Positions 14,691 to 59,166 of a stretch of 64,000 nt of DNA are shown one piece after another (position 1 is the stretch's first letter; the number at the start of each line of letters is the position of its first letter). Position numbers and translations under genes: made by a program. The stretch lies in contig JAFYHG010000018.1 of assembly GCA_017539265.1 (NCBI GenBank), forward strand, positions 8,779-72,778, in the 5' to 3' direction. The notes below the pieces were generated by a model, which saw nothing but the letters and a program-made list of their open reading frames with translations, ran no database searches and was not told where the DNA came from. Origin of the DNA: Alphaproteobacteria bacterium. GTDB lineage: Bacteria > Pseudomonadota > Alphaproteobacteria > CAAHEQ01 > UBA3637.

Positions 14691-14701
14691 GGGGAACAGA
14701 T

Positions 14702-17806: not shown

Positions 17807-17809
17807 AAA

Positions 17810-18451: not shown

Positions 18452-18452
18452 C

Positions 18453-19306: not shown

Positions 19307-20049
19307 CGGGAATTTCCTAAAAATTCACGCACAGAAATTTTTAACCAATTGATTTTGTTTTTCAATTTTTGAAAGATTGTATACCTTGCCGATATTTTAT
19401 AGGCTAATTTCTGTTTTGATATTCCGTCTAACGCTTGTGCGAGTTCTTTTATAAACGGTAATGTCACTTTAATCACATTATCGGGATAGAGCTCAAAATC
19501 TCTATATTTTTTTACCCATTCCAGTTGCATCACATTTGCCGATGAAACTTTCCGCTGTAACTTGCCCGTCAATCCCGGCTGCCCTGTATAAGAGGGATGA
19601 TTTACAACATACTTTAACCGATATTTTTTGCATAATTTATCGACAATATTTAATTCTGTTTGATATTCTTCCCGCGTGCAATAACCGATACCAACCGCTA
19701 AATCAAACGGGCGATCCTTCATAGCATGAATATCCAAGAAATAATGATTATCCAAATTATTTTTTAAAATAAAAGAACTGATGGTACATTTTTTACGCCA
19801 ATACTTATTCCGAACAATATATGAAAAACGATTTTTCTCCCCCAGATATTTTGTAATCGCCCCCGTAAACCAATCACTTCCCTTAAACCGTTTATAACAT
19901 GTCGAATTAGTTGCATGCGGCGCCGTCAGGCAAACAAATGTATTGTACTCAAAAAAAGAAAAAACCTTCTTCTCCGCCAAATCCCCCGAATATTGATTTT
20001 GCGCAAAGCATGCCTCATATTTCTTCAGTAAATTAATCTCTCGTTTCAT
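19303..20049 (-). CDS. hypothetical protein (possible FGase-like amidohydrolase fold, tentative)
   Basis: Long AT-rich ORF. The APHA and LDIHAM motifs are only suggestive. Confidence 0.4.
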   Translation of the reverse strand: MKREINLLKKYEACFAQNQYSGDLAEKKVFSFFEYNTFVCLTAPHATNSTCYKRFKGSDWFTGAITKYLGEKNRFSYIVRNKYWRKKCTISSFILKNNLDNHYFLDIHAMKDRPFDLAVGIGYCTREEYQTELNIVDKLCKKYRLKYVVNHPSYTGQPGLTGKLQRKVSSANVMQLEWVKKYRDFELYPDNVIKVTLPFIKELAQALDGISKQKLAYKISARYTIFQKLKNKINWLKISVREFLGNSR

Positions 20050-20077
20050 ACACCCTCTTTACTGGGACTAAACGGTA

Positions 20078-21118
20078 TTATAAAGACACTAGCTGCTCAC
20101 AGGAAAGCTGCGGTTCATACTCCCAATCAGACCAAACTTTTTTGTTTTCCTCCGCCATTTTTTTCAACCTATTTTCAAACGCTTTCTTACTTCTTGAAAA
20201 GGAAAACTCATTTCCGTTAGAATCGATACAAACATACTCATTTTGGCTTCCCTGAATCTCAACTGTTTTTTCTCCATTTTTATTAAAATATTGGCGGGAA
20301 GCGTGAAAATCACCCTGTCCCCTAACCACTTCTTCTCTAATCGCAATATTCCCATCTTCATAATAAACCTCTTCAACAAAAGAACTCCGTAAAGGAGACC
20401 TATCAACCCGTCTTCTCAGGGCTAACTTTCCTTGATTATACAGGTTCATATTGGGATAATAATACCTAGTTTGCTTAGAACGGGGACAATTATAAATATT
20501 AACATCAACTAAAAGACCCTTTACATAATTGCGACCTGTTAAACATCTATTCTGATGGAAACTGATGGTTCCTGTAAATAATTCCCCATTTTTTGCATAA
20601 ATCAGTTCTCCTTGTTTATACCAATTTTCATGTTCAATGGGCCATTCATGAAACATATCGGTTATACAAAATAAGTATGCTGCATAAAATACACCTGTCG
20701 ATACAGCAAATATCTTTAATATCAAGGACTCTTTTTCCTTTCGCTTTTTTATCATTAGAACTAAGATAGGAATACAAATCAAAAGACCAACACCATAAAG
20801 AATCATACCTACATCAATATCAATGCGTTCTCTTAACAGAATATGAGATATTGCCAAAAACATCACAAAACTAAATAAAGGTGCAGTTATCTTTGTTCGT
20901 CCTAAAGACCATAGAAAAATCACAACACTGCAAATATATAACAAAGAAAAGCCTATATAAAAAATAGGGAACAATATTGTCGGTTTTGAAATTGGTAAAA
21001 GGAACTTGAAAATTTGTTCTTGGCCGGGGGCAAATATCATCACCCCCACCTGATACAACAAAATAGATGATGTCGCAATAAAAAATAGCCGTGCCAATAT
21101 AACAAAAACTTTTTTCAT
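20078..21118 (-). CDS. hypothetical membrane protein
   Basis: About five N-terminal TM helices and a soluble C-terminal half with weak MORN-variant-like G-x-x-x-G periodicity. Confidence 0.4.
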   Translation of the reverse strand: MKKVFVILARLFFIATSSILLYQVGVMIFAPGQEQIFKFLLPISKPTILFPIFYIGFSLLYICSVVIFLWSLGRTKITAPLFSFVMFLAISHILLRERIDIDVGMILYGVGLLICIPILVLMIKKRKEKESLILKIFAVSTGVFYAAYLFCITDMFHEWPIEHENWYKQGELIYAKNGELFTGTISFHQNRCLTGRNYVKGLLVDVNIYNCPRSKQTRYYYPNMNLYNQGKLALRRRVDRSPLRSSFVEEVYYEDGNIAIREEVVRGQGDFHASRQYFNKNGEKTVEIQGSQNEYVCIDSNGNEFSFSRSKKAFENRLKKMAEENKKVWSDWEYEPQLSCEQLVSL

Positions 21119-21186
21119 ATTATGTTTCTTTCATCAGAATTACTTTCGTTTATAACATACCATTCGATAATTTACAATCCCCCAAT

Positions 21187-21215
21187 TTGACAAAATTTCA
21201 AAATTATGCTATAAT
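21187..21215 (+). promoter_or_regulatory. consensus sigma70 promoter
   Basis: TTGACA-17 nt-TATAAT, exact. SD aaggag follows before the ATG at 21239. Confidence 0.6.
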
Positions 21216-21238
21216 GCGCTTGTTAAGGAGAATTAAAC

Positions 21239-22135
21239 ATGCCACAAACGCCGAAAAAAAAGCCCGCTGTTACTCGTTCGACCTATCGCTACACGCGTCA
21301 GGATTGGGAACGTTTAAACCTTGAACTGGCGGCTTTACAGGCGGTTCAAAAGAAAGTAACTCCCGAAATAAATACGACAAAAATTGCTCCCCGTATTGCA
21401 CTCATTACTCATGAAATTCAAGAAAAAGCCAAAACGCGTAAACAAAAAGCCGATGTTGGTATCTACATACAATTGGGTCAAAAAACAGTTCAATTTTTCT
21501 TGGATAATCCGCAGTATATTCCCCTGATGAAGCACGAAATGGCCCGCCGATATCAAGCCCGTTTAAACGGAGAAGATATGCGTTTTGATACTTTAAATAA
21601 TTCGGTTTTAAATGCTCACGCCGAAGAAAATGCCGGCACGATTTACAAAGGTGGTATTTGCGAATGGAATGATAACTATCGTCGGGTACGCAATGATTAT
21701 ATCGAAACAATGGGGCGTGCCTGTCAAGCTGCCGAAATGGCCCTGCGGCGCAGCCAACCCGATCCTGTCCCGACACAAACCCAAGTACTGGTTCAACCGC
21801 GTCCCCAAGCCCAGCCACAACCTGCGCCAACGACACGACCTCCTCATCCGACATTTAACCCCGCCAATTTCCCCAATTATTGGAAGACGTTCCAACGCTC
21901 AAATGAAGAGGAAGTCAATCAACTTCTGGGTAACCGGTGTGATGATAATGTACCCGACATGCCTGAGGCAGAACTCCCAAAAGAAAATCCTCAACCTCCG
22001 AAACCAACCCCCGTGGTACAGGATTTACTCCCCGGTTTTGTTATGCCGCCGGCCGAAATTCCCGAAAAGGCAAAACGGGTCCGTAGATCCACACGAAAAT
22101 TTCGCTTACCCGACTCCGTCAAACAACGGTCATAA
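21239..22135 (+). CDS. hypothetical Pro/Gln-rich protein
   Basis: ORF behind a consensus promoter and SD. The C-terminal half is PQ-rich (QPRPQAQPQPAPTTRPPHP). Confidence 0.5.
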   Translation: MPQTPKKKPAVTRSTYRYTRQDWERLNLELAALQAVQKKVTPEINTTKIAPRIALITHEIQEKAKTRKQKADVGIYIQLGQKTVQFFLDNPQYIPLMKHEMARRYQARLNGEDMRFDTLNNSVLNAHAEENAGTIYKGGICEWNDNYRRVRNDYIETMGRACQAAEMALRRSQPDPVPTQTQVLVQPRPQAQPQPAPTTRPPHPTFNPANFPNYWKTFQRSNEEEVNQLLGNRCDDNVPDMPEAELPKENPQPPKPTPVVQDLLPGFVMPPAEIPEKAKRVRRSTRKFRLPDSVKQRS

Positions 22136-38286: not shown

Positions 38287-38346
38287 GCATTATTTACACC
38301 TAACTCCAACCTTTTTCCATACGTAAAGTTTTCTGTTTTAGGCGCT

Positions 38347-38371
38347 AAAAAAGCCCCGTCAAAAGGGGCTT
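38347..38371 (-). terminator. orphaned native terminator of tRNA-Arg
   Basis: On the minus strand, directly after the distal att copy: aagcccc-ttttgac-ggggctt followed by ttttt. Confidence 0.5.
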
Positions 38372-38381
38372 TATTACAAAC

Positions 38382-38398
38382 TGGCGCGCCCGGCAGGA
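38382..38398. repeat. att copy 1 (17-bp duplicate of the tRNA-Arg 3' end)
   Basis: tggcgcgcccggcagga is identical to 43255-43271 and 59090-59106. Confidence 0.85.
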
Positions 38399-38714: not shown

Positions 38715-39563
38715 TTAGTCAGCATCATAGGTCCATTGACCATTTCTTAATTCAAATTTATCTAGATTAAATTTGACAGTACAATTTCCTTCAGGATCAC
38801 AACCGCCTGATATATTATTAAGATTCTTGATTTTTATATCTGTTATTATCGGAAAACGGTAGTAAAATACTTTTATTTTAAATGTAACCAGACCGGTCTC
38901 ATCTCCTAACATATTCTCAATGTAATCTAACGCCTTATCTTTTGGAAGATTTAGTTTGAAAATATCATATCTTTTTGCTTTATCCAATTTGATGTTAATG
39001 GCAACCGAGGAAGCATAATTTAGTATTGTATCTGCTAGATAATTCGCCCATAATCTATTATACTGATTTTCAAATAGCGTTTTAATCTCTTTTAAATCCT
39101 GATTCTCTTTTTTAAACTGGTACAAAGAAAGCAAAGTGTTCAGATTTTTTATCAATGGTTCTCCTTTACTAAAAATTTTAACTAATTCTTCCGTACTTTC
39201 AAAAGGATAATCTTTCTTTTCTAGAGAAAAACGGTGCAAGGCTGATTCAATGGCGGCATAATAGAGAACATGGTTCAATACCGTATTTACACAAGATTGA
39301 TACCTTTTCCCCTTTGTGAGGCATTGCTCTACTCTTGTTTTGATCTTTGCAGAGTCATAAGCTTTATCTATTGCCACAAGAGTTTCTTCTACCGTATCAG
39401 CATTCATTGTACCATCAATAATTTCTTGGGTGAGTTCCAATAATTTTGTTCTAAAATTAGAAATGGATTCTATTTGTTGACTTGTCATATCAAGGGCGTA
39501 ACTTTTACTTGTCATCAATACAAAAGTAATGACCAGAGCTAAGGATATTTTTATTTTAGACAT
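38715..39563 (-). CDS. hypothetical secreted protein
   Basis: Signal peptide MSKIKISLALVITFVLMTSKSYA. Last gene of a 4-gene same-strand block. Confidence 0.5.
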   Translation of the reverse strand: MSKIKISLALVITFVLMTSKSYALDMTSQQIESISNFRTKLLELTQEIIDGTMNADTVEETLVAIDKAYDSAKIKTRVEQCLTKGKRYQSCVNTVLNHVLYYAAIESALHRFSLEKKDYPFESTEELVKIFSKGEPLIKNLNTLLSLYQFKKENQDLKEIKTLFENQYNRLWANYLADTILNYASSVAINIKLDKAKRYDIFKLNLPKDKALDYIENMLGDETGLVTFKIKVFYYRFPIITDIKIKNLNNISGGCDPEGNCTVKFNLDKFELRNGQWTYDAD

Positions 39564-39566
39564 ATT

Positions 39567-41249
39567 CTAATCCTTTCCGATACAATAAGATTCTGTACCA
39601 TATTCATGTCTTTCTCTTCTTATTTTACGATTTTGGCACATATTACATTGTTCTTCTGCTCCTGTTACATTAAGCCTTGCCAGTCCAATACCATAGTCTC
39701 CTTTGGAATCACAAGAATAACAGTGTGCAAAACCATAGCTTACTTCTAAAATGGGTTTTTCTTCCGGACACGGAATCATACAATATCTTCCGATTAATTT
39801 TCGATTTGGACAAAGCTTACAGTTATTCGTTACACCCTCAAGATCTACTAAATTACTTCCATCATTGCATGCAAAACATTCACCATTTTTATCTCTTAAA
39901 GGTTTATCAGGGGGGCATGACTTTAGGATGCTGTATTTTTCAACAATTTCTCTTTCCGTTTCACAAGCATTAGAGATATTTCCATTTACTTCAATTTTTA
40001 CAGGGGCTGAACAAGCATAGCAGTTACCATCGATATCTACTTGGGGTTTATCTGTTGGACATAATACACAACTGTTCCCCGTATCTAAAACAATTCTATT
40101 AGGACAGATCTGACACACCTCTGCAGCAGCAACACGAATACGAGCAATTTCATCACATGAATGACATTCTCCAACTTCATCCCTAAGGGGTTTATCCTTT
40201 GGACATGTTAAGATACAAATATCGCTATATTTTGTGTGGACAGAATACCTGTTGGGGCACACAGAACAATTTGGTGAGTCAATAGATCTGTTTGCTTCAT
40301 TTTCATCACAAGGATGGCAACGTCCTTCCTTATCGGCCAAAGGTTTGTCCTGTGGACACGGGAGAGAACAGAGATTTCCATACATAATACGGTTTGAACA
40401 TAATTGGCATGTTTGCTCATCGGTTTTTAATTTTTCATCGGTTTCACAATCATAGCATCCTGCGTTTACTCTCATTGGCTTATCAGATGGGCAAGTTTCC
40501 AAAATACATCCATTTTTGTAATCGTATATTCTCTCAGGATATAAAGCACATTGTTGTTTTTGAAAATCTATATTTTCTCTCGCTACATAGGCCCTCAAAG
40601 ATTCTTCTTCGTTTTTAGGTTCCATAAACGTAATAGGTAAAGGATCATCAGTGGCACGACAACCACCATTGCTATCGCGAATTGGGAAGTCTTTTGGACA
40701 TTCCCCCTTTAAAAAACAAATATTCCCGTTTAGTTCACGGTTTGCACATTGTAAACAATTACTTCGTTCATAACTTTGACGGAAGCCTAAATCCAATGCA
40801 GCAGGATCATCACATGAAAAACATTTAAATTCTCTTGTTCGTTCATCAACAATCACTTTAATTGGCTTTTCTTCAGGACAACCGAATGTGCAGGTACCTG
40901 TGGCTCCATCGTTATCTTCAAAAAATTGTGTTCCGGGAATTTGGGCACATTCCCAGTCCGTAAGACCATAAGCATCTTCTCTGGAACAAGCATTATAACC
41001 ACTACCTCTTAAAGGATTGTCTGGTGGACATTCTTTCAGAATACAGTGACCATACTCATCCAATTTTCTATTTGAGCATATGCTTGAGCACTCTTGATTG
41101 TAAACCCCGCGTAGTGTATCACAGGAAAAACATTCCCTATTGTACTCCGCTAATGGTTTATCTGGTGGACAAACAATAGGTTCTTTTTCAGCCATTGCAA
41201 AAGAAGGCATCATTATTGATATAAGTAAAAATAAGGTTGTTTTTTTCAT
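39567..41249 (-). CDS. secreted cysteine-rich repeat protein (10x CPxDKP units)
   Basis: Signal peptide MKKTTLFLLISIMMPSFAMA. Ten units of 45-60 aa of the form CP.[DE]KP[LIM]...C..C[DE]...C..C.NR...C. Confidence 0.6.
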   Translation of the reverse strand: MKKTTLFLLISIMMPSFAMAEKEPIVCPPDKPLAEYNRECFSCDTLRGVYNQECSSICSNRKLDEYGHCILKECPPDNPLRGSGYNACSREDAYGLTDWECAQIPGTQFFEDNDGATGTCTFGCPEEKPIKVIVDERTREFKCFSCDDPAALDLGFRQSYERSNCLQCANRELNGNICFLKGECPKDFPIRDSNGGCRATDDPLPITFMEPKNEEESLRAYVARENIDFQKQQCALYPERIYDYKNGCILETCPSDKPMRVNAGCYDCETDEKLKTDEQTCQLCSNRIMYGNLCSLPCPQDKPLADKEGRCHPCDENEANRSIDSPNCSVCPNRYSVHTKYSDICILTCPKDKPLRDEVGECHSCDEIARIRVAAAEVCQICPNRIVLDTGNSCVLCPTDKPQVDIDGNCYACSAPVKIEVNGNISNACETEREIVEKYSILKSCPPDKPLRDKNGECFACNDGSNLVDLEGVTNNCKLCPNRKLIGRYCMIPCPEEKPILEVSYGFAHCYSCDSKGDYGIGLARLNVTGAEEQCNMCQNRKIRRERHEYGTESYCIGKD

Positions 41250-42022
41250 TGTATAAATCCCCTGATTAACTTATCATCCCATCCTTTGTCAGGACCTGTA
41301 AAAAATCCAAACCCAGAATTAAATTGAAAAAGCTTAACTTCATCCTCAGACATATCTCTTGATTTACCAGAAAGAGCATAAACTTTTCCAGAAACTTTTT
41401 CTCCATCTTGTATTATTTCAAAAGCCTTTCCACCAGTTCTATAAAAGAGTGTTGCTGTGGCTATTTTCTTTTCTTTGTCTACTGATCCAAGATATTTTAA
41501 ATTTCCATTTTTATAATATACCTTAAATTCTCCGGCCTCATCATTTTCTGGATATTCAGCGAATTTTTCACCGCTGGCATAACGCTGTTCTTCTACGTAC
41601 TCCTTTCCATTTTTATAAGTAATACTCCATCTTTGTTCACCATTAATATGGTAATGTATTTCTTTTCCTTCTTTTTCTCCGTTTAAGTATGTTCTTAACA
41701 TTCTTGGAGTCCCATCCGGACGATATTCTTCCAAGGTACCATTGTACTTTCCATCTTTCCAATGAACAATAAAGCGTTTCGTTCCATTGGGCCAATACCA
41801 AATTTCTGTTCCGTTTTTTAGACCATTTTCATAAGGTATTTCTTTTTGAATATTCCCATTTTTAAAGGGAACTTTTACCATCCCTGTAATACTTTGATTG
41901 TTCTGATCTACTACCATATTTAAAGCTGGATCTAAACGGATATCTTTTTCCTGATAAATCGTTTCGGCATTTACAGAAGCCGAAAAGATTAAACACAATG
42001 ATAAAATAAATTTATATTTCAT
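41246..42022 (-). CDS. secreted MORN-variant (YwqK-like) repeat protein
   Basis: Signal peptide MKYKFILSLCLIFSASVNA. Repeats such as YENGLKNGTEIWYWPNGTKRFIVHWKDGKYNGTLEEYRPDG. Confidence 0.65.
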   Translation of the reverse strand: MKYKFILSLCLIFSASVNAETIYQEKDIRLDPALNMVVDQNNQSITGMVKVPFKNGNIQKEIPYENGLKNGTEIWYWPNGTKRFIVHWKDGKYNGTLEEYRPDGTPRMLRTYLNGEKEGKEIHYHINGEQRWSITYKNGKEYVEEQRYASGEKFAEYPENDEAGEFKVYYKNGNLKYLGSVDKEKKIATATLFYRTGGKAFEIIQDGEKVSGKVYALSGKSRDMSEDEVKLFQFNSGFGFFTGPDKGWDDKLIRGFIQ

Positions 42023-42023
42023 A

Positions 42024-42911
42024 TTATCGAGCCCCCAAACTGATACTAAGTGCTATATCCATCAAATAATCTGTTGCTTTTTGTTCGTCTAAAATGCTTT
42101 TTTCCCCGTTCTCAGAATAAAATTCTCCAGCAATGGCCTTATCTCCTTTGATAGTCAACCGCAACATGGGTTTATTATTTTCATAGTAGACCGTATAGAT
42201 ATAATTTGCTTGTTCTTTGAATTCTTCAGGTACTGGTTCTATATAAAGATATATTCTATTATTACTCGCATAGTAAGTTTTGGTATTTGTTGTCTGATCT
42301 TCTGAGAACGAAAGATTCCCTTTATAATCATACTGTTCCCTTATAGAATTATTTTCATAGCAAGATTCTACTTTTCGTGCTGGCAATTCAGTAATTGGTA
42401 ATCCGGTTACTTTTGAAATGCGTTTCTGTGTCGGGTCAATTTTCGACCTGTATCCGGAATAAGGCCTTCCATCTCTATAATACGTACTTTTAACGCATCT
42501 GTTCATTTTGTACTCTGTTTTTTGGGAAATTTCGCCGGGATGATATTTGTCATATTCAATTACCATACCATTTAGATATCCATCCTTAAAATCATACTCT
42601 TTTTCAAGAATATCTTCTCTATCATAACACTTCATCTTCCCGTCTTTTTTACCGTTTTTTACGGAAAGTTCCATCTTATGGCAAACTGACCACGAATTTG
42701 TCCCGGGTAAAGCAAACACCCTTGTCGAAACACTTTTTAACTGATCTGACTCATTATACAATATTGTTCCTGTGATCGGGTTATAGTTCTTATCATAGAT
42801 AATATCACTTTCCCGAACATCAAGAATATCTGTTAAAGAGTAAACTGCTTGCCCAAAAGATACGGAGGGGCATAAAGCAATGAATAATCCCAATATGGCT
42901 ATTTTTTTCAT
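42024..42911 (-). CDS. secreted MORN-variant-like repeat protein
   Basis: ATG 42911 with SD ggggga. Signal peptide MKKIAILGLFIALCPSVSFG. KNGKKDGKMKCYD...FKDGYLNGMVIEYD repeats. Confidence 0.55.
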   Translation of the reverse strand: MKKIAILGLFIALCPSVSFGQAVYSLTDILDVRESDIIYDKNYNPITGTILYNESDQLKSVSTRVFALPGTNSWSVCHKMELSVKNGKKDGKMKCYDREDILEKEYDFKDGYLNGMVIEYDKYHPGEISQKTEYKMNRCVKSTYYRDGRPYSGYRSKIDPTQKRISKVTGLPITELPARKVESCYENNSIREQYDYKGNLSFSEDQTTNTKTYYASNNRIYLYIEPVPEEFKEQANYIYTVYYENNKPMLRLTIKGDKAIAGEFYSENGEKSILDEQKATDYLMDIALSISLGAR

Positions 42912-43254
42912 AACATCCCCCATAATAAAACACTTTTTGTATTGTAAACAATTTTTTTCTAAATGCAAGTGTAAAAAAACGAACATTTTTATTGTCTGCT
43001 GAACTAAATATATTACGAACGTTTTTTAATATTGTTATATAAAATGATCAAAAAGATCTACAAACCGGATATCAAAAAATGCACTAAAAGTTCACCATAA
43101 AGTTCCATAAAAATTGTCCTAAAATCAATTTAAAAATGAGGATAAGAAAAGTGTTTGTTTGTGTCCAAGGATTGTGTCCACCCCTTGTTGCCAAGCAAAA
43201 TTCCCAATTTCAGGCATAAAAAAAGCCTTGATAAACAAGGCATTATTTTAAAAG

Positions 43255-43271
43255 TGGCGCGCCCGGCAGGA
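43255..43271. repeat. att copy 2
   Basis: tggcgcgcccggcagga. Confidence 0.85.
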
Positions 43272-44433: not shown

Positions 44434-44865
44434 ATGAATAAAGAACAAATTAAAGAAGCAATATTAGGGAAAAAAGATTGTCATGGGGAAGAAACACCTC
44501 TCTGTCAATTTTCAACATTCCATCCGGATATGGAAATGGTGGAGATATTATTAAAAGGTGCGGATATTAATAAATCTTTTAATCACCAACCGATGGCATG
44601 GGTATTTCAATTCTGTGAACCGAATTGGGATGAAATGCTCACGCTTTTGTTCAAATACAAATACCATGCCTTACATCTGGACAGGAAAAGCGATTTTGAA
44701 AGTTTACTGCAACTTTTATCCAGAGTTAAACCGGAAACCGTGATGTATGTCTTAAAAATAATGAAGAAACATAGGTTTCGACCGACATTTGAACAGATTG
44801 ATTACATAAATAAATCAAAAGAGGATTTTAAAAAGGAGTTTAAATGGAAAGACTGGGTGAAATGA
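44434..44865 (+). CDS. hypothetical protein, one degenerate ankyrin-like repeat
   Basis: The ATG at 44434 follows the upstream stop. EMVEILLKGADIN segment. Confidence 0.4.
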   Translation: MNKEQIKEAILGKKDCHGEETPLCQFSTFHPDMEMVEILLKGADINKSFNHQPMAWVFQFCEPNWDEMLTLLFKYKYHALHLDRKSDFESLLQLLSRVKPETVMYVLKIMKKHRFRPTFEQIDYINKSKEDFKKEFKWKDWVK

Positions 44866-45317
44866 CAAAAGGTTTGTTAAAAGCAATCAATGAAAGGAAT
44901 TGGCGAGAAATTAAAAGGCTGGTTCACTTGGGCGGAAACTTAAATGCCGCTTACGATCCGTTTGGAAATACACCCTTTTTATATGCCATGCATATTTTTA
45001 AGAAAGCGGAAGAAATTGAACGCTTGATTAAATTAGGTGGAGATGTGACCTATAAAAACAGGGTGGGAAAAACAGCCTTGATGATAGCAGTTGAAAATGG
45101 GTGTGAACCGATAACGCCTTGGGTTATGGTGGATTATGGAGCGGACATTAATGCACAGGATGCATTGGGAAACACCGCCTTAATGATTTGTTTAGAATCC
45201 AGATTATATACCAAGAAACTGCTTTATGCCCTGATAGATTACGGGGCAGATTTAACCAACCTGAAGAATAAGGAAGGGAAAACAGCGTTTGATATACTAT
45301 ATGATGAATTAGAGTAA
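44844..45317 (+). CDS. ankyrin repeat protein
   Basis: SD aaggag 5 nt before the ATG. Repeats GNTPFLYAM...LIKLGGDV, GKTALMIAVENG, GNTALMICL...LIDYGADL. Confidence 0.75.
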   Translation: MERLGEMTKGLLKAINERNWREIKRLVHLGGNLNAAYDPFGNTPFLYAMHIFKKAEEIERLIKLGGDVTYKNRVGKTALMIAVENGCEPITPWVMVDYGADINAQDALGNTALMICLESRLYTKKLLYALIDYGADLTNLKNKEGKTAFDILYDELE

Positions 45318-47185: not shown

Positions 47186-47214
47186 TTGGCTTTTCAAAAA
47201 ATCGGCTGTATGCT
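47186..47214 (+). promoter_or_regulatory. candidate promoter (island promoter cassette, copy B)
   Basis: TTGGCT-17 nt-TATGCT followed by cccgggcc. Confidence 0.5.
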
Positions 47215-47257
47215 CCCGGGCCGCAATAAAAGTTCAATTTTAACGAAAGGATACAAA

Positions 47258-47839
47258 ATGGTTAATCAAGTTTTTATTGACGACAAGAAAATTAAAGACA
47301 TCTTAACTTACATTCAGGGGATGAGACATGCTGAAATGATACGGATGATGTTTTTATGTTCACTGAATGGCATGAGGTCTATAAATTTCGCCTATCTCCA
47401 AGTAGGTGATGTTTATACTCCCGACTTTAAGGTTAAGGATGTCATTTGTTTGGATGCGGATAAAAATAAAGGAAAGTTCGGGTGTTCGTATTATCTTAAC
47501 AGCCAAATGAAGAAAGAGTTTAAGGAGTATTTAGGGTATTTGAAGGCTAAAAATGAAGAGATTACGCCAGAAATGTATTTGTTTACCTCACAAAAGATGG
47601 GAAAACCTTTCAACCGTGTGTCAATTTCACGGATGTTCGCAACCGTTTACAAAAAGTTCAACATTGAAGGAGCATCACACTTGGGGCGACATTTGTTCGT
47701 GAGTCGGCTTATCAATGCTGGAACTAATATCTGTTTGGTTCAGAAACTCGCCAACCATCGCAACATTGGCACAACCCAACGTTATTTTAATTATAACGAG
47801 AAAATGCTCTCAAATGCTGTGGAAAATGTAGTTTTATAG
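47258..47839 (+). CDS. small tyrosine recombinase, FimB/FimE-like size (catalytic domain only)
   Basis: SD aaagga. 193 aa. HLGRHLFVSRL and LANHRNIGTTQRYF catalytic motifs. Confidence 0.75.
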   Translation: MVNQVFIDDKKIKDILTYIQGMRHAEMIRMMFLCSLNGMRSINFAYLQVGDVYTPDFKVKDVICLDADKNKGKFGCSYYLNSQMKKEFKEYLGYLKAKNEEITPEMYLFTSQKMGKPFNRVSISRMFATVYKKFNIEGASHLGRHLFVSRLINAGTNICLVQKLANHRNIGTTQRYFNYNEKMLSNAVENVVL

Positions 47840-48161: not shown

Positions 48162-49130
48162 TTATGGTGTTTTTTGTAATTTCTTAAATTGGTAAAATAC
48201 AGATGCCGGCGAAACACCGAAATAGTCGCCAATTTGTCTAAAACTCATTCCAGCTGTTTTCATTCGTACCAATTGTTTGCTATCCACTTTAAAGTCTTCC
48301 CAGCCTTTATTTTTAACTAAATCAAATTTTTTTATAACCCTGTAGATACTCGCTGGATGGGCATTTACCTTTTTTGCAATTTCTTTTCCCGAAACACCAG
48401 AAAAATACAATTTTTTTATAAGTTCTTCCTGCTTTCCCAACCGACTATTCAATTTAATTTGATCAGGTGTCCGGGTTAATCCCATTTTTTTAATTTCTTG
48501 TTCAAGAAGTTTATGAGAGCATCCTAATTTTTCTGCTATAAAGGAAATGGATCTTCCTTCAGCAAACATCTCTTTTATCTTATCCTTTTTAAGGTCTAAT
48601 TTCTTCAGTTTAGGTGCTTCTAAATTATGTAAAAGAATGAAATTATACAATGTTGAATAGCAAACATTATATTTTTGTGCAATGGCTTTTCTAGAGACAC
48701 CTTTTAATAATAGGTCTTGTATATCATCTTTATAGTGGTCTATTCTGGTCCAGTTATGGCGAGGTTCTGGTTTTAACCCCAATAATCTTTGTTCTTCTAA
48801 TGTTTTTTTGCCTTTTTTATAGACCTGTATACGATCAAGTGATGCGACATAAATACCGCTTTCTTTTTCAAATTTTATGAGTGTTCTGCGGCATATTTTC
48901 AATTTTTTACAGATATCTTCACGCGTTAGCCCTAATTTATAAAAATGTTTTATTTTTTCGGGATTAAGTTTTATTTCCCGAGTATGTGGTTCTCTTTTCC
49001 ACCCTAAATCTTTTAGATAATTACGAAGGGTAGAAAGACTTATATTCATACGATCCGCTATCCCGCCCAAGGAAAGGTCAGATTTGTAGAGTTCTTTTAA
49101 TTTGTCTATATCTAGTTCAATTTTGTTCAT
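48162..49130 (-). CDS. DNA-binding protein with six tandem helix-turn-helix modules
   Basis: Six units of the form [IL]K.[LM]Y..G.S...IA.K.......[LI]...[IL]KK..L, e.g. GVSGKEIAKKVNAHPASIYRVIKKF. Confidence 0.6.
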   Translation of the reverse strand: MNKIELDIDKLKELYKSDLSLGGIADRMNISLSTLRNYLKDLGWKREPHTREIKLNPEKIKHFYKLGLTREDICKKLKICRRTLIKFEKESGIYVASLDRIQVYKKGKKTLEEQRLLGLKPEPRHNWTRIDHYKDDIQDLLLKGVSRKAIAQKYNVCYSTLYNFILLHNLEAPKLKKLDLKKDKIKEMFAEGRSISFIAEKLGCSHKLLEQEIKKMGLTRTPDQIKLNSRLGKQEELIKKLYFSGVSGKEIAKKVNAHPASIYRVIKKFDLVKNKGWEDFKVDSKQLVRMKTAGMSFRQIGDYFGVSPASVFYQFKKLQKTP

Positions 49131-49234: not shown

Positions 49235-52200
49235 TTAGAATCCAAAAGTCACACCGACTTTGTAGGACACGCTGTCGTTGCCACCATAGGCAGCACCGGC
49301 GTTCAACAATGTCCGGTCGTTGAGATAATGGAATGCACCAACAGCCAAGGCTTGGTTGTTCTTGTATCCGCCCAAAGCCGCACTGACTTGCGTTTTGTGG
49401 ACATGATCCAGAGGAACAAGACCTGCCAAAGCGTTGTTAGCAGCTAACCCGTTTTCCATCTTGGTTTCTAACTTGTTGATACGGCGATCAACGCGGGCGA
49501 ATTCAGCACCCAAGTTATCATTCAAGTTGGTCAAGAGGTCAGAAATGCTTGACGGATCACCAACGGCTTGTGCACCAACAGCACCACCATTAGCTTGTTC
49601 TTTTCCTTTAAAGAACTTTAAGTTCTCTAAAGAAGACAAATCGCCAACAGTTTCATCAACGGCTTCAAAAGCAGATTCTGTAGCTGATTCTAACAATGCA
49701 ATTTGGTTATCTGTGTAAGTATTAGCATTGGCCTCAGCTGTATCAGCAGCACCATATGCATCATATGTATTAGCTGCAATAGCACCACTGATAGATGTAA
49801 TCTTACCATCTGTTTCAACGATGTTCAAAGACAAACCATCAGCACCTGCTGCTTGTGATACATTAGCATCTAAAGCATTAACTTTACCATCTGCGTAAGT
49901 CTTTGCATCAGCCAAAGCATTAGCAGCAGCACCATATGCATCATATGTATTAGCTGCAATAGCACCGCTGATAGCTGTAATCTTACCATCTGTTTGTGTA
50001 ATACTTAATGATAAGCCATCAGCACCGGCTGCTTGTGATACATTAGCATCCAAAGCATTAACTTTACCATCTGCGTAATTTTTGGCATTGGTTTCTGCTG
50101 TATTAGCATAACCTTTTGCTTGAGTATTCACATAAGTAACTGCTTCTGCAAGAGAACCAACCTGTTCGGTTGATACTTCTAAAGCGGTACGCATTGTATC
50201 CAGATTACCGACACGGCTATCAAGACCTTTGATTTGTCCATCTAAAACAATGTCAGCACCTGTCAATGTTGTTGCAGCTGTCAGGTAGTTTGTATCGGCG
50301 TATTCGTTGTTAACTGCATTCGAATTGGCCGAAGTAATACCCAATGTGTTATCAACCCATTGTTGTTTCTCGTTGAAGATAGCTTCTGCTTCTGTCCGTG
50401 TATAGACATCTGCGAGATTTGCTTTGTTAGCATCCAAAGCATCCAAAGCACCACGAACTGTTGTCGTTGAGCCTTCGCCTTGCTTTAACACAGAACCGTC
50501 TACAGCTTCTTCATCCGCATAGTTAACATCACCGATGGTGTCATTTGTGCCTTTGATTTGCGCATCCAAAACAATGTCAGCACCTGTCAAGGTTGTTGCA
50601 TCCGTCAGGTAGTTTGTGTCGGCGTATTCGTTGTTAACTGCATTCGCATTAGCCGAAGTAATACCCAATGTGTCATCAACCCATTGTTGTTTTTGTGCAA
50701 AGATAGCTTCTGCTTCGCTTCTGACACCGGCAACAGCCGTTGTAACAGCGGTATTAATCTTGCCATCAACAACTTTGCCCAATGAATCATCATAGGCCGC
50801 TACACTAGCCTCATGAGTAGCTGTATCAGTTGTGAAGTTAGTATTAGCTGTTTGCAATGATCCTTCCCAATTATTCAGGTTAGTTACTGTTGCTTGGTCA
50901 GTCGCCATGGTAGTAGCAATCTTATCCTTATTTGCAACGCTGTCATCATAGTAACCTTTTAATTCGGATTGTCTATTGGCCAGAGCCGTTACATCAGATT
51001 CGTAAGCATTAACTAGGTCTGCTTTGATACCTGCTGTAGTTGCATCATCTGCTGATACTGCTGTTCCATTTTTCTTTAAGACATAGCCATCTTCTGACGC
51101 TTCGATGGTATAATGGTCACCTGCAGTATTCGTCAATTCATAATTGGCAATATCAACACTTCCAGTTCCTGCGCTAGATGCAGTGATATCAAGTTTACCA
51201 CCTAAATCACTCGTCTGAACTGTATCTGTTAATTCTGCAACCGCTGTGCTACCTGCGACAGAAGTAGAATTACCATCTTTATCATATGTGACATATGTAT
51301 AATCATCGGCAGTCAGAGTACCACTATCATAGGACAGGTCGGCCACAGCAGAAATACCATCTACAGTAGCAGCTGCAGAAGTTGCAGTGTAATCTGCCGA
51401 TGTATAGGAAGCACCAGCGACTAAATCTGTGGGATTACCTTCTGGATCTGTAAAGCCATAATCCGCGGCATCCGGTGCATCACCAGGAGCGTTTGCAGAA
51501 ATGCTTGACACTTTATCAGACAATGTCTTCAAAGCAGTGTCCAAAGCGGTATCAGCACCCGTCAAGGTTGTTGCAGCTGTCAGGTAATTTGTTCCGGTGT
51601 ATTCGTCGTTAACTGCATTCGCATTAGCCGAAGTAATACCCAATGTGTTATCAACCCAGGTTTGCTTTTCGTTGAAGATAGCTTCTGCATTATCCCATAA
51701 TGTTCCCAAAGCGGTATCTGTATAGTTTTTCGCATAAGTCTTTGCATTTGCTTCAGCTGTATTCGCTTTCGTTGTTGCATCAGTAGCAGCGGCTGTAATC
51801 GCTTCGGATTTAGCAGTAGCAGCAGCACCATAAGCATCATATGTATTTGCAGCAATGCTACCAGAAATACCAGTAATCACACCATTTTCTTGAGTGATGC
51901 TCAAAGCCAATTGACCATTACCTGCGGCTGCAGCTTGAGTTTCTGTTGCATTCAAAGCATCAATTGCATCACCAACTGTTTTGCTCACAGAACCATCGCC
52001 TGTACCATTCAAGGTAGCAATAGCGCTCTCGTTTGTTGTGATTTTACCTACAAGAGTAGAAGTAATACCAGAGTTGACGGCAGCTAATTGTTCTGTTCCC
52101 AATTTTGCTTGGTATGTATTCGCCAAATCTAAAGCATCAATTGCATCACCAACTGTTTTGCTCACAGAACCATCGCCTGTACCATTCAAGGTAGCAATAG

Positions 52201-52726
52201 CATCTGCATTGGCTTTAACCTGTGTATCCAATAACTTATCTGCGCCAGCCATTGTTGTTGCGCCTGTCAGATAATTTGTACCGGTATACGCATTTGTTAC
52301 CCCAGTTGTTCCGGTGGATAAATCAACGCCCAATGTTTTCTGGGAAATGACACCACCTGTTAATTCTACAAAATCACCAACAGCAGTATTGACAACGGCA
52401 TAATCACCAGCATCTGAACTACCCGCTAGCAATTGTGCTAAAGCATCACGAGTGTATTTGGGGTGAGCCGCTGCAAAATCTGCATCAATGGTGTAATCTG
52501 TTCCACCAAGATTTGTAGTGTAGGTGTCTGTCCCCGTTGTGATGGCTGTATGAAAATTAGTTAAGTTTGTTGCAACTGAAGCAGTAGGGTCATAAGCCTC
52601 ATCTGCTGCCTTTGCACCTGTGGCAACGATTAAGCCCACTGCAAAGGCATTAAGCAGAAAACATTTCTTCAAAACACTACGGTATCTCGCAGAAAGTTCT
52701 CTGATTGTTGTTTTTGTATATTTCAT
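49235..52726 (-). CDS. trimeric autotransporter adhesin (YadA-like), island-borne
   Basis: Extended signal MKYTKTTIRELSARYRSVLKKCFLLNAFAVGLIVATGAKA. Long internal repeats. Anchor ...GAFHYLNDRTLLNAGAAYGGNDSVSYKVGVTFGF. Confidence 0.85.
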   Translation of the reverse strand: MKYTKTTIRELSARYRSVLKKCFLLNAFAVGLIVATGAKAADEAYDPTASVATNLTNFHTAITTGTDTYTTNLGGTDYTIDADFAAAHPKYTRDALAQLLAGSSDAGDYAVVNTAVGDFVELTGGVISQKTLGVDLSTGTTGVTNAYTGTNYLTGATTMAGADKLLDTQVKANADAIATLNGTGDGSVSKTVGDAIDALDLANTYQAKLGTEQLAAVNSGITSTLVGKITTNESAIATLNGTGDGSVSKTVGDAIDALNATETQAAAAGNGQLALSITQENGVITGISGSIAANTYDAYGAAATAKSEAITAAATDATTKANTAEANAKTYAKNYTDTALGTLWDNAEAIFNEKQTWVDNTLGITSANANAVNDEYTGTNYLTAATTLTGADTALDTALKTLSDKVSSISANAPGDAPDAADYGFTDPEGNPTDLVAGASYTSADYTATSAAATVDGISAVADLSYDSGTLTADDYTYVTYDKDGNSTSVAGSTAVAELTDTVQTSDLGGKLDITASSAGTGSVDIANYELTNTAGDHYTIEASEDGYVLKKNGTAVSADDATTAGIKADLVNAYESDVTALANRQSELKGYYDDSVANKDKIATTMATDQATVTNLNNWEGSLQTANTNFTTDTATHEASVAAYDDSLGKVVDGKINTAVTTAVAGVRSEAEAIFAQKQQWVDDTLGITSANANAVNNEYADTNYLTDATTLTGADIVLDAQIKGTNDTIGDVNYADEEAVDGSVLKQGEGSTTTVRGALDALDANKANLADVYTRTEAEAIFNEKQQWVDNTLGITSANSNAVNNEYADTNYLTAATTLTGADIVLDGQIKGLDSRVGNLDTMRTALEVSTEQVGSLAEAVTYVNTQAKGYANTAETNAKNYADGKVNALDANVSQAAGADGLSLSITQTDGKITAISGAIAANTYDAYGAAANALADAKTYADGKVNALDANVSQAAGADGLSLNIVETDGKITSISGAIAANTYDAYGAADTAEANANTYTDNQIALLESATESAFEAVDETVGDLSSLENLKFFKGKEQANGGAVGAQAVGDPSSISDLLTNLNDNLGAEFARVDRRINKLETKMENGLAANNALAGLVPLDHVHKTQVSAALGGYKNNQALAVGAFHYLNDRTLLNAGAAYGGNDSVSYKVGVTFGF

Positions 52727-54628: not shown

Positions 54629-54655
54629 ACCCTCAACTCTCGTTGAGGGTTTTTG
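54629..54655. terminator. bidirectional terminator hairpin between convergent genes
   Basis: accctcaac-tctc-gttgagggt forms a 9-bp stem with a T-run after it and an A-run before it. Confidence 0.55.
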
Positions 54656-55022
54656 CTTGTTTCTGTTGATCCAATGCCCAATCCAGAATCTGTTTCCTTC
54701 GTTCAAAGGCATTCTCTTTCGGGAACTTTTCTTCATAGCGGTCAAGCATAGCGTAAAGCAAAAGTGAAGCAAACGGATTCTTGTTAAATGCGGCATAATC
54801 CCTGGCAGTCCAACCTCTATAATCCATATAATTCGGATTTGCTCCATGTTCCAGCAGATATTCAACAACCGTCAAGTCACCCGATAGCATACAACAAACT
54901 TGAAGTATTGATGACAATTGAGTGTTTATCGGTTGATTGATATCATCCAGTAGCGACACAACATACTTAACATCCTCAATTGTATCTACAAATACTTCAT
55001 CTTTATCTTCCTGATTTTCCAT
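54633..55022 (-). CDS. ankyrin repeat protein
   Basis: LEHGANPNYMDYRGWTARDYAAFNKN repeat and a preceding degenerate repeat. Confidence 0.6.
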   Translation of the reverse strand: MENQEDKDEVFVDTIEDVKYVVSLLDDINQPINTQLSSILQVCCMLSGDLTVVEYLLEHGANPNYMDYRGWTARDYAAFNKNPFASLLLYAMLDRYEEKFPKENAFERRKQILDWALDQQKQAKTLNES

Positions 55023-57006: not shown

Positions 57007-58779
57007 ATGTCATACCACTATCCTGGACTGATTATATTATACGGGCAATTTTATATTAGGGTTAGAATACCCGCCTGTTTAAGAATGATCGCCAGATGCA
57101 AAGAGATAAGATATTCATTACAAACAAAAATCTATCAGGAAGCAATTGAAAAGTACCACGTGGAATTTGCTCATTTACAAGCATTTTTAACAATTTTTAA
57201 GGATATAATTATGAAAGTAAATGAGAATAAACAATTAACTTTAACTGAAACTGATGTGGACAAATTATTGCTCCACAGGTTAGAACAAATCCAAACCTTT
57301 TTGGAAAATAATGTAGATGAAATCAAGTCCCGACATAAGTCCGAGGCAGATATTATTTTGCTCTCAAGGGATAAAAAAGAAGCGGATATCCGCAAATTAA
57401 TGCAGGATATGATTTTGGGTTATTTGAAAGGACTGGTGGATAAAAATAAGGCAAATATCACTTTGCGGATGATTTACACTCAACTCAAAAATAAAGAGAT
57501 TGAGTTGGGGTTAGTGCAACAGGGGGAAAAATATGATTGGTTAAAAGCATTTTCCACCCACATTAACCATTTAGACCATTATGCCCAAAAATCTGTTAAG
57601 GCAATCCAAGAGGAAAAGCATTATGCCCCAACCAACCCAAAGGTTATAACCCTTTTGCGCACTTATGATTCCATGAAAACGGATGAGCGAATTCACTGTT
57701 CTATGGCAGCAACCCATTGGAAAAAGTTTTTCAAACGCTATCTGACGATGAAAAAGAATATTAAAGGGACATCTAATAAAAGGTTGTGTAAATTGGAGAA
57801 ATGTATTTGGTTAGCATTTGCACTTATGAAACGGGAGTATGTAGAAGATGTAACCAAACAGGATTGTCGCCAACTTTGCGAACTGATACATCGAGTTCCG
57901 AAACGGTGGCAAGAAAAAATTAGGGGAGATGATATTTTCCAAATTTTGACAGATAACCCTGAAAAGGCACTATCTAAAACAACCATTCAAGGATACTTAA
58001 CAGTATTTAAGGAGTACATGCGTTATGCTGAAAGAGAGGAGATTATTTCCAATAATTTGAATAGCGCAGTAGATGTACCTATCAATGTAAAACCATTTCA
58101 GCGAGAACCCTTTACAGCGAAAGATTTACACAAGATGTTTAATTCAGAAACATATATAGATCCCCGTATCAGAAAGGATTTACCCAAATTCTGGATACCA
58201 ATTATAGCCCTTTACCATGGTTGTCGTTTGAATGAAATCTGTCAATTGGATGTCAATGATATTGTGCAAGAAAAGGGAATACCTTGTATCAGCATTAATG
58301 CAAATGCCCCAGATAAATCCGTTAAAAATAAAGGATCTGAACGAATAATACCACTACATCCAAAACTAATTGAAATGGGATTTTTATATTATGTTGAATA
58401 TCAAAAACGAGGGCACAAACGAAAATTGTTTGACCTAAAACAGATTAAAAACGGGATGTATGGTAGTCCGGTCCAACATTGGTTTGCACGATATTTAGAT
58501 AGTATTGGGATAACGGAAACAACCAAAGTTTTTCATTCGTTCCGGCATACTTTTGAGACAATGGCAACAGAAAAGAGAATTCCCCCACAATATCAAAATG
58601 CAATTTGTGGGTGGACAGAACAAGGCATTGGACAAAGACTTTATGCCCACAAGAAGGACATGAACATTATGTTAGAAGAAATCAGCAAAATTAACTATCC
58701 AATCAATCGTGAACTGTCAGAACTAAAGAAGTCTTTCATGGATTCATTTGTTGTCAGGTCTTTAAGGGCAAATGGATAA
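57007..58779 (+). CDS. tyrosine integrase (tRNA-targeting, long N-terminal arm domain)
   Basis: N-terminal FYIRVRIP...EIRYSLQT. Catalytic CRLNEICQL, HSFRHTF and GQRLYAH motifs. Adjacent to tRNA-Arg. Confidence 0.85.
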   Translation: MSYHYPGLIILYGQFYIRVRIPACLRMIARCKEIRYSLQTKIYQEAIEKYHVEFAHLQAFLTIFKDIIMKVNENKQLTLTETDVDKLLLHRLEQIQTFLENNVDEIKSRHKSEADIILLSRDKKEADIRKLMQDMILGYLKGLVDKNKANITLRMIYTQLKNKEIELGLVQQGEKYDWLKAFSTHINHLDHYAQKSVKAIQEEKHYAPTNPKVITLLRTYDSMKTDERIHCSMAATHWKKFFKRYLTMKKNIKGTSNKRLCKLEKCIWLAFALMKREYVEDVTKQDCRQLCELIHRVPKRWQEKIRGDDIFQILTDNPEKALSKTTIQGYLTVFKEYMRYAEREEIISNNLNSAVDVPINVKPFQREPFTAKDLHKMFNSETYIDPRIRKDLPKFWIPIIALYHGCRLNEICQLDVNDIVQEKGIPCISINANAPDKSVKNKGSERIIPLHPKLIEMGFLYYVEYQKRGHKRKLFDLKQIKNGMYGSPVQHWFARYLDSIGITETTKVFHSFRHTFETMATEKRIPPQYQNAICGWTEQGIGQRLYAHKKDMNIMLEEISKINYPINRELSELKKSFMDSFVVRSLRANG

Positions 58780-59052: not shown

Positions 59053-59076
59053 AAAAAAAGCCTTGATAAACAAGGC
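59053..59076 (-). terminator. element-supplied terminator downstream of tRNA-Arg
   Basis: On the minus strand, gccttg-tttat-caaggc followed by ttttttt. The same hairpin occurs at 43223-43240. Confidence 0.5.
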
Positions 59077-59089
59077 ATTATTCTAAAAG

Positions 59090-59106
59090 TGGCGCGCCCG
59101 GCAGGA
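59090..59106. repeat. att copy 3 (within the tRNA)
   Basis: tggcgcgcccggcagga corresponds to tRNA positions 60-76. Confidence 0.85.
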
Positions 59107-59166
59107 TTCGAACTTACAACCTTCTGATCCGTAGTCAGATGCTCTATCCAATTGAGCTACGGGCGC
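59090..59166 (-). tRNA. tRNA-Arg (anticodon ACG)
   Basis: Manual fold: acceptor GCGCCCG/CGGGCGC, D arm GCTC/GAGC, anticodon stem TCTGA/TCAGA with loop CTACGGA, T loop TTCGAAT, encoded CCA. The T stem GTAAG/CCTGC has one A-C mismatch and one G-U. Confidence 0.85.

Follow-up and report, generated by a model that had tools for sequence, protein, structure and literature searches.

A secreted protein of ten cysteine-rich repeats from an uncultured gut alphaproteobacterium resembles disulfide-stapled rod modules and belongs to a family without a database model

In the A1-B2 modules of the tumour necrosis factor receptors (TNFR), the canonical cysteine connectivity is 1-2, 3-5 and 4-6. In Giardia VSPs, ciliate surface antigens and the Myxococcus TIGR02232 proteins, all of them secreted or located on the surface, repeated CxxC motifs predominate. 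The grafting of a binding module onto a pilin, as in PilB of Streptococcus sanguinis, is a documented adhesion design that was reported to be widespread (PMC8179133). Here, we describe a gene encoding a cysteine-rich repeat (CRR) protein, located in a 64,000-nucleotide stretch of an alphaproteobacterial metagenome-assembled genome (MAG; assembly GCA_017539265.1, contig JAFYHG010000018.1, positions 8,779 to 72,778 of the forward strand), which is referred to as the window. The positions given below are those of the window.

39567 to 41249, minus strand: gene of the CRR protein, stop codon included, from the list of open reading frames (ORFs) and its translation
41190 to 41249, minus strand: predicted signal peptide (residues 1 to 20), MKKTTLFLLISIMMPSFAMA, cleavage predicted before E21 (mature EKEP...)

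The ORF starts with ATG, comprises 560 codons and is terminated by TAG; its coordinates, given in an earlier note made from this DNA alone, were verified exactly. The identical protein (P0001) is annotated as 'MAG: hypothetical protein IKS41_03575 [Alphaproteobacteria bacterium]', and the source of the gene is an uncultured gut alphaproteobacterium. The start codon overlaps the stop codon of the upstream gene (ATGA), and a Shine-Dalgarno-like motif, AGGGGA, is found approximately 9 nt upstream of the start. An orthologue of 82% identity from another metagenome (P0002) shares all 54 of the 54 cysteines, and comparison of the two genes yielded a ratio of nonsynonymous to synonymous changes (dN/dS) of 0.11 (dS 0.88, dN 0.098). 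Since, in addition, the ten-unit architecture is collinear in the orthologues, the CRR gene is a real gene under purifying selection. The earlier note had left room for an ORF that is not translated. Beyond the missing annotation nothing speaks for a spurious ORF, and the dN/dS ratio, the conserved cysteines, the translational coupling within a conserved operon and the hundreds of homologous clusters contradict it, so that its probability is practically nil.

The N-terminus reads as a signal for Sec export and signal peptidase I, since its n-region is basic and is followed by a hydrophobic core of 14 residues and an AxA site. These features, which are in line with the signal peptide proposed in the earlier note, were recognized by reading the sequence and not with a predictor. 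By the same inspection, neither a twin-arginine motif nor a lipobox is present in the N-terminus.

The CRR protein contains 54 cysteines (9.6%) and is composed of ten contiguous units of 45 to 69 amino acids with linkers of 0 to 3 residues. Each unit opens with CP..[KNF]P (residues 27, 74, 124, 184, 253, 298, 349, 397, 445 and 494), and the consensus of about 49 amino acids is CPxDKPLxDxxGxCxxCD-x(9-20)-CxxCPNR-x(6-14)-C, with the cysteines spaced as C-x(11-18)-CxxC-x(9-20)-Cx(2-3)C-x(6-14)-C. A 49-position unit profile was built from relatives only, with the units of the CRR protein and its two closest orthologues excluded. This independent profile scored the protein at 298 bits, whereas 200 composition-preserving shuffles scored -2 bits or less; the repeat is therefore not a chance pattern. 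All ten units counted in the earlier note were recovered. The scaffold described there as invariant turned out to be less regular, with six cysteines in only seven of the ten units and four in the other three. Units 2 and 4 lack C3 and C5, the second cysteine of each CxxC, while unit 8 lacks two cysteines, assigned by the hidden Markov model (HMM) of the family as C4 and C6. In unit 1, the second CxxC is replaced by CxxxC (CSSIC), and the motif of unit 4 is CPKDFP. The loops, too, exceed the ranges given before: the one preceding C2 reaches 12 residues, the one from C3 to C4 reaches 20 and the one preceding C6 reaches 14.

41031 to 41171, minus strand: unit 1 (residues 27 to 73), six cysteines, second knuckle CxxxC, 42 bits with the independent profile
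40881 to 41030, minus strand: unit 2 (residues 74 to 123), four cysteines
40701 to 40880, minus strand: unit 3 (residues 124 to 183), six cysteines, long first loop
40494 to 40700, minus strand: unit 4 (residues 184 to 252), four cysteines (C3 and C5 missing)
40062 to 40493, minus strand: units 5 to 7 (residues 253 to 396), three canonical six-cysteine units, the fragment modelled with AlphaFold2
39918 to 40061, minus strand: unit 8 (residues 397 to 444), four cysteines, missing pair C4/C6 by the family HMM
39570 to 39917, minus strand: units 9 and 10 (residues 445 to 560), six cysteines each

Tandem Repeats Finder reported no repeat in the DNA of the CRR gene, and the identity between units is 61% at most on the DNA level (median 54%; amino-acid median 33%), which agrees with the statement of the earlier note that the array is not a recent expansion. 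Five orthologues, with identities down to 41%, are collinear over all ten units and carry degenerate units at matching positions. On average, a unit shares 46% similarity with the unit at the matching position of an orthologue and 34% with the other units. Because of this collinearity and the closer likeness of positional counterparts, the ten-unit array predates these species. The cysteine loss in unit 8 is common to all five orthologues. In unit 2, C3 and C5 are absent in the CRR protein, P0002 and P0003, and both are present in the orthologues P0004 and P0005. The latter two lack the charged insertion of about 30 amino acids found in unit 4 and have lost C1 and C2 of unit 10 together. No second copy of the repeat was found in the window. 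By eye, the two halves of a unit look alike (CPxDKPLxDxxGxCxxC and CPNRxLxxGxxCxLxC), a hint of an older hairpin module of about 24 amino acids; an internal half-unit duplication was not supported by hhalign (E 0.2). The units of some relatives appear to have one half deleted (e.g. CPNRPLSDIYGYCYTC).

Scans of the CRR protein against Pfam and NCBIfam gave no match even at E ≤ 1, and sequence searches of the PDB, for which both the protein and the unit profile served as queries, resulted only in insignificant matches to zinc fingers, cytochromes and RSV F. The repeat can thus still not be assigned to a named bacterial family, as the earlier note had stated. With a word-indexed search, 32 homologues were retrieved, for which the sole name was 'hypothetical protein [Alphaproteobacteria bacterium]'. 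For the profile search proposed in the earlier note, 110 diverse units were combined into a profile, with which 1.84 billion cluster representatives were searched exhaustively. A large family was revealed (clusters at 50% identity), the few named members of which are hypothetical proteins of 'Alphaproteobacteria bacterium'; it comprises 734 clusters at E ≤ 1e-3, while the stricter limits of 1e-10 and 1e-30 leave 445 and 122, respectively, with 3 to 32 units per protein. Patterns taken from the orthologue alignment were found at two loci among 185,579 species genomes, both in MAGs of uncultured Alphaproteobacteria and one of them from water-buffalo caecum. A cluster look-up added one further named member, also from an Alphaproteobacteria MAG. 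The few family members that carry a taxonomic label are from Alphaproteobacteria MAGs, and where a source is given, it is an animal gut. No relative was found in viral contigs, and nothing describing the repeat was found in the literature. CysRRep, a recently reported repeat with the spacing Cx6-9Cx5-7Cx8-11Cx7-8CC (Daugavet et al. 2026, bioRxiv 10.64898/2026.06.07.730663), was rejected as identical, since the CRR spacing differs and the terminal CC is missing. The CRR repeats are a real and fairly large family without a database model, so far derived from metagenomes only.

The pattern in which cysteines are lost and gained in this family carries most of the information on their state. Cysteine parity was analysed for 945 adjacent unit pairs, anchored on the best-conserved C3 and C5, with C1 being displaced by insertions. 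With the C4 slot empty, 44 of 48 cases show two cysteines, one fewer than the usual three, in the following group of C6, C1 and C2. With C4 present, 871 of 876 cases have an odd number in this group, namely three cysteines (772 cases), one (62), five (34) or seven (3). Family-wide, 934 of the 945 periods (98.8%) contain an even number of cysteines, and the total is even in 65 of the 89 long proteins (p = 1.6e-5). Since cysteines are lost and gained in fixed pairs across the family, disulfides are favoured, the most likely partners judged from the sequences being C1-C2, C3-C5 and C4-C6 (three per canonical unit). The covariation, which is the only basis of this pairing, points to exactly the pairs of the TNFR cysteine-rich domain (CRD).

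The paired CxxC motifs might also be read as zinc ribbons, zinc knuckles or other metal sites, the protein then being an array which stores, buffers or senses metal. This would be compatible with the zinc-ribbon-like spacing C2-x2-C3 ... C4-x2-C5, with the reducing habitat and with weak profile matches, all insignificant, to ArfGAP zinc fingers and a number of Zn_ribbon families of Pfam, among others. However, the six cysteines per period do not provide whole four-cysteine sites, and the paired losses (C3+C5, C4+C6 and C1+C2) split the putative C2/C3/C4/C5 site while the other 'ligands' are long retained. The even parity of the periods and the lack of a CxxCH motif argue in the same direction, and the Sec-type signal disfavours a cofactor assembled in the cytoplasm. 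A metal-binding array is therefore very unlikely. A zinc ribbon or knuckle was rejected as a known system with which to identify the unit, because its ligands are not kept or lost as a set of four, there are six cysteines per period and the protein has a Sec signal. A multihaem c-type cytochrome was rejected as well, as no CxxC of the CRR protein is followed by histidine. Of the two readings offered in the earlier note, that of disulfide modules gains from the paired losses, the Sec export, the sub-threshold Pfam matches to TNFR-like, furin-like and NCD3G modules and the weak Foldseek matches of this type, both described below, while that of zinc knuckles does not hold against the pairwise losses.

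For structure prediction, which had also been proposed in the earlier note, units 5 to 7 and an alignment of 42 three-unit fragments were submitted to AlphaFold2. The resulting model is confident (mean pLDDT 90.9, pTM 0.73) and predicts two beta-hairpins and a short helix for each unit, in the order hairpin 1 (PLRDxxGxC), short helix before C4 and hairpin 2 (NRxLxxGxxC). A Foldseek search of the PDB with this model gave no significant match; the weak top matches were the meckelin CRD, CD40, GITR, EGFR and R-spondin. In a lenient Pfam scan, the 42 fragments yielded only sub-threshold matches, to NCD3G (11/42), TNFR_ELAPOR1 (6/42), Furin-like_2 (3/42), GF_recep_IV (2/42) and scattered zinc-ribbon models. 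The best NCD3G match was obtained with the fragment from the window (E 0.0014, 15.8 bits with a threshold of 38.9), the best Furin-like_2 match had an E of 0.0064, below the gathering threshold, and the distant member P0065 reached 19.8 bits with Ephrin_rec_like (threshold 23.1). With hhalign, no similarity was found between the unit profile and the CD40 and TNFR1 ectodomains, used here as approximate sequences (probability 0.5%). The CRR unit looks like the TNFR/furin-like class of disulfide-stapled beta-hairpin modules, and membership in a known family was not supported by the Pfam, PDB, Foldseek or hhalign comparisons.

The same likeness raises the question of common descent. If the units were true TNFR, furin-like or ephrin-receptor-like homologues, ancient or transferred, the protein might be a host-mimicking decoy or receptor which binds host ligands. 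The putative cysteine connectivity, which would equal that of the TNFR CRD, the weak Pfam and Foldseek matches and the location of the gene in a genomic island beside ankyrin and adhesin genes (see below) are in line with this. We regard such a decoy as very improbable. The broader version, a bacterial branch or acquired copy of the eukaryotic TNFR/furin-like/ephrin-receptor-like superfamily which engages host or protist ligands from pili or as a free rod, is a long shot as well. If true, it would represent a bacterial receptor mimic or decoy, with MORN partners or on type IVb pili, and would imply that bacteria of a strongly reducing gut habitat build stable disulfide-rich surface rods.

The structural part of our interpretation is highly probable. 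The CRR protein would be exported via Sec with cleavage of the signal peptide, and its ten modules would be oxidised with up to 27 disulfides (C1-C2, C3-C5 and C4-C6), units 2, 4 and 8 being one disulfide short each. The abutting modules would give rise to an extracytoplasmic rod, stiff and resistant to proteases; stiffness is expected because the units abut with linkers of 0 to 3 residues only. What the rod is used for is suggested mainly by its relatives and by its neighbouring genes.

The N-termini of the 173 best family representatives were surveyed. A class-III-like signal, G|RSMVEMLGVLAxIGVLS with glutamate at +5, was found in 59 of them and a Sec-like N-terminus in 74, the remainder being fragments or unclear. 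By sequence, the pilin signal is near threshold only (TIGR02532, 15.1 with 16.3 required). The first 150 residues of one such relative, P0014, were modelled with AlphaFold2 at a pLDDT of 92.5 as a 54-residue N-terminal helix on a beta-sheet with a conserved cysteine pair. In Foldseek, the 16 best PDB matches of this module were all type IVb pilins, with PilS first (1.8e-4), followed by CofA and TcpA (probability 0.75 to 1.00, the first six 1.00). Since the top structural matches are exclusively of this type, about one third of the relatives are, as judged from the model, modular pilins with a CRR array grafted behind a type IVb-pilin-like module. The CRR protein of the window has a Sec-type signal (MKK...AMA|E) and neither a class III signal nor a pilin module. 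No pilus machinery genes were found adjoining the pilin-type members examined.

In P0007, P0014, P0018 and others, the pilin-like module is separated from the first repeat by an extra cysteine-rich segment with CC doublets (residues 150 to 235 approximately; e.g. RCNTSGDCKCGDCVDGLCESYC...CC...CC...CC), which is distinct from the 49-amino-acid unit. The gene order mlaE, ABC ATPase, radA, cvpA and rlmH-like is common to the window (13905 to 19306) and the contig of P0014 (L004, 1412 to 7962). On L004, the CRR pilin gene comes after that of the SPOUT methyltransferase; at the equivalent place in the window (19303 to 22135), unrelated ORFs without Pfam match are found.

Other architectures were found in single relatives. 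In P0027, C-terminal MORN_2 repeats are fused to the CRR units, P0023 has a C-terminal membrane anchor, and the C-terminus of P0028 is named DUF1311 (a name taken from the source, with no Pfam match). Fusions to a VIT domain and to teneurin-type EGF domains are present as well. An example of the latter is P0170 (1767 amino acids, MBO7484426.1, from an Alphaproteobacteria MAG), in which a pilin-like N-terminus and CRR units are combined with matches to EGF_Teneurin (1.6e-46) and EGF_TEN (1.2e-40); a domain of this type is unusual in a bacterium. The pilin, MORN_2, VIT, EGF and anchor architectures assign the repeat to an extracytoplasmic position, as a stalk or a module for binding.

The CRR gene occupies the third position among four closely spaced genes on the minus strand, all of which encode proteins with signal peptides.

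42024 to 42986, minus strand: first gene of the cassette, ORF of 320 amino acids, likely start at M26 giving a signal peptide, no Pfam match
41246 to 42022, minus strand: upstream partner, secreted MORN_2-repeat protein of 258 amino acids (Pfam MORN_2, 1.4e-10)
38715 to 39563, minus strand: downstream secreted protein of 282 amino acids without assigned function, beginning 3 nt after the CRR stop codon

The product of the first gene is weakly similar to its MORN_2 neighbour (E 0.012), and the gene is conserved in orthologous loci with 34 to 35% identity. The MORN_2 gene is translationally coupled to the CRR gene and is kept beside it in other genomes (43% identity). The order MORN-like, MORN_2 and CRR is maintained in at least three other genomes, while the last gene of the cassette is conserved only in the closest relatives and not in more distant orthologous loci. 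The link between MORN_2 and CRR is thus given by both conserved neighbourhood and domain fusion.

The cassette is located in a stretch of 35% GC beside rpsB, flanked by core regions of 44 to 48% GC. The 3' end of tRNA-Arg(ACG) occurs, together with the adjacent hairpin, in three direct copies (38340 to 38398, more diverged; 43218 to 43271; 59053 to 59166), and the two partial copies also share the sequence following them.

59090 to 59166, minus strand: tRNA-Arg(ACG), integration target, adjoining the integrase gene at 57007 to 58779
43218 to 43271, plus strand: middle att-like repeat, a 54-bp near-exact copy of 59053 to 59106
38340 to 38398, plus strand: distal att-like repeat, hairpin and 17 bp identical to the tRNA-Arg 3' end, bounding a 4.8-kb segment

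These repeats indicate two tandem integrated segments at tRNA-Arg. Segment A (43.3 to 59.1 kb) encodes two integrases, a resolvase, an adhesin with YadA anchor and an ankyrin protein. Segment B (38.4 to 43.2 kb) is devoid of an integrase and comprises exactly the four-gene cassette. Because segment B lies between att-like repeats of tRNA-Arg, the CRR gene is accessory, horizontally acquired cargo among genes of the surface and host-interaction type.

A cysteine-rich, secreted protein on a mobile island might be a toxin, a bacteriocin or a precursor of the cysteine-rich RiPP-like type (e.g. SCIFF). The length of 560 amino acids with ten conserved modules, the pilin fusions of the relatives and the lack of maturase, immunity or export genes nearby do not fit such a role, nor was a match to SCIFF or any bacteriocin family found in NCBIfam; we consider it highly improbable. 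Likewise, a SCIFF or other cysteine-rich RiPP precursor was rejected as a known counterpart in view of the length, the signal peptide, the missing NCBIfam match and the absence of a maturase from the cassette.

Several other genes of the window are worth recording. The adhesin of the island (49235 to 52726, minus strand, 1163 amino acids) has a C-terminal YadA-like membrane anchor, the mark of trimeric autotransporter adhesins, and a second protein with a YadA-like anchor is encoded at the start of the window (105 to 2417, plus strand, 770 amino acids). Two island loci, 44844 to 45317 (plus strand) and 54633 to 55022 (minus strand), comprise an ankyrin-repeat protein (Pfam Ank_2, 1.8e-13) and a second small ORF which looks ankyrin-like (...VEYLLEHGANPNYMDYRG). 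On the contig of another CRR family member (L013), a large ankyrin protein is encoded nearby. Also inside the island and adjoining an integrase-family gene (47186 to 47839), the gene at 48162 to 49130 (minus strand) encodes a 322-amino-acid protein consisting nearly entirely of repeated helix-turn-helix (HTH) units; it matches 36 HTH Pfam families, with the best HTH stretches at residues 6 to 60, 134 to 165, 181 to 275 and 282 to 320 (all approximately). A membrane protein of 346 amino acids without Pfam match is encoded in a 39% GC patch (20078 to 21118, minus strand); in its C-terminal half, MORN_2-like motifs (YAKNGELFTGT, YYEDGNIAIRE) can be seen by eye.

Combining the structural picture with these architectures and neighbours, we lean slightly towards an exported, disulfide-rich rod which serves as a binding or adhesion scaffold, extracellular or periplasmic. 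Alternatively, the rod would act as a spacer presenting a binding surface; it might act together with the two co-transcribed secreted MORN-like proteins, perhaps as a complex, and in the pilin-type relatives such a rod would be displayed on a type IVb filament. Its final location could be the periplasm, the surface or the medium. Several points weigh against this interpretation. Adhesion is suggested by the architectures of the relatives and by neighbouring genes and not by the CRR protein itself, and the gene contexts of other family members are heterogeneous. Conditions in the source habitat, the ruminant gut, are strongly reducing, and the annotated part of the window showed no Dsb gene. 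Moreover, with an ordinary Sec signal and no recognisable outer-membrane route, the CRR protein may stay periplasmic.

In the latter case it might be a structural component of the periplasm or cell envelope, serving as a spacer or scaffold or assisting the MORN-like proteins as their partner or chaperone, and taking no part in external adhesion. A plain Sec signal without outer-membrane anchor, autotransporter domain or pilin module would suit such a component, as would an operon of secreted proteins without any assigned function, and the gene of the relative P0030 is located between ftsK and lolA among envelope genes. On the other hand, about one third of the relatives are pilin fusions, i.e. 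surface filaments, and the gene resides in a horizontally acquired island and not among core envelope genes. The family is also patchy, so far found in metagenomes alone and no conserved component of the envelope, with orthologue patterns at only two loci of the species genomes searched. We judge a purely envelope-internal role unlikely and retain the binding or adhesion scaffold as our working interpretation.

The CRR family is sizeable and without relative in Pfam, NCBIfam or PDB; its module is predicted confidently, and evolutionary variation by itself suffices to read the probable disulfide pattern. An alignment of CRR units could seed a family model and thereby provide annotation for hundreds of 'hypothetical proteins'. 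Modular type IVb pilins with long cysteine-rich rods in uncultured bacteria form a previously unrecognised class. As adhesins or mimics of host ligands, such rods would be candidate means by which gut alphaproteobacteria attach to host, protist and microbial surfaces.

In comparison with known systems, hairpin-type disulfide-rich extracellular repeats and pilin-grafted modules are kinds already known, while the CRR family was undescribed, as were its signature CPxDKPL...CxxCPNR, the connection of the repeat to type IVb pilin modules and MORN_2 proteins and its presence in uncultured Alphaproteobacteria. From the Giardia, ciliate and Myxococcus proteins rich in CxxC, the CRR protein differs in unit length and motifs and in the lack of a Pfam or NCBIfam match. 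The furin-like, growth-factor-receptor, ephrin-receptor-like (GCC2_GCC3) and NCD3G domains are likewise stacks of beta-hairpins punctuated by CxxC, and their motif type 'CP-x-G-x-[FY]...G-x-C-x-x-C' appears in some CRR members (e.g. CPKGQFRGGDGQCYDC); however, all CRR matches to them are below the gathering thresholds, and period and conserved residues differ. With the TNFR CRDs, the CRR units share the design of extracellular six-cysteine beta-hairpin modules of about 40 to 50 amino acids strung into rods: seven of the ten units have six cysteines within 45 to 66 amino acids in a protein with Sec signal. The putative pairs C1-C2, C3-C5 and C4-C6 would correspond to the canonical connectivity. 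In contrast to these receptors, the CRR protein is bacterial, has ten units instead of one to six and is devoid of a transmembrane region and signalling tail. Its signature residues are CPxDKPL and CPNR, it has no significant sequence, profile or structure match to a CRD, and a structural superposition of the unit on solved CRDs was not obtained. The modular type IV pilins (PilB and PilC of S. sanguinis, CofB of enterotoxigenic Escherichia coli) are matched by the array behind a type IVb-pilin-like module in the 59 representatives mentioned above, an architecture which is that of tip-located pilus adhesins (PMC8179133). The CRR protein of the window, with its Sec signal, differs from these pilins by lacking the pilin module, and in the pilin-type relatives the grafted part is predicted to be a disulfide-rich rod and not a vWA, lectin or beta-sandwich domain.

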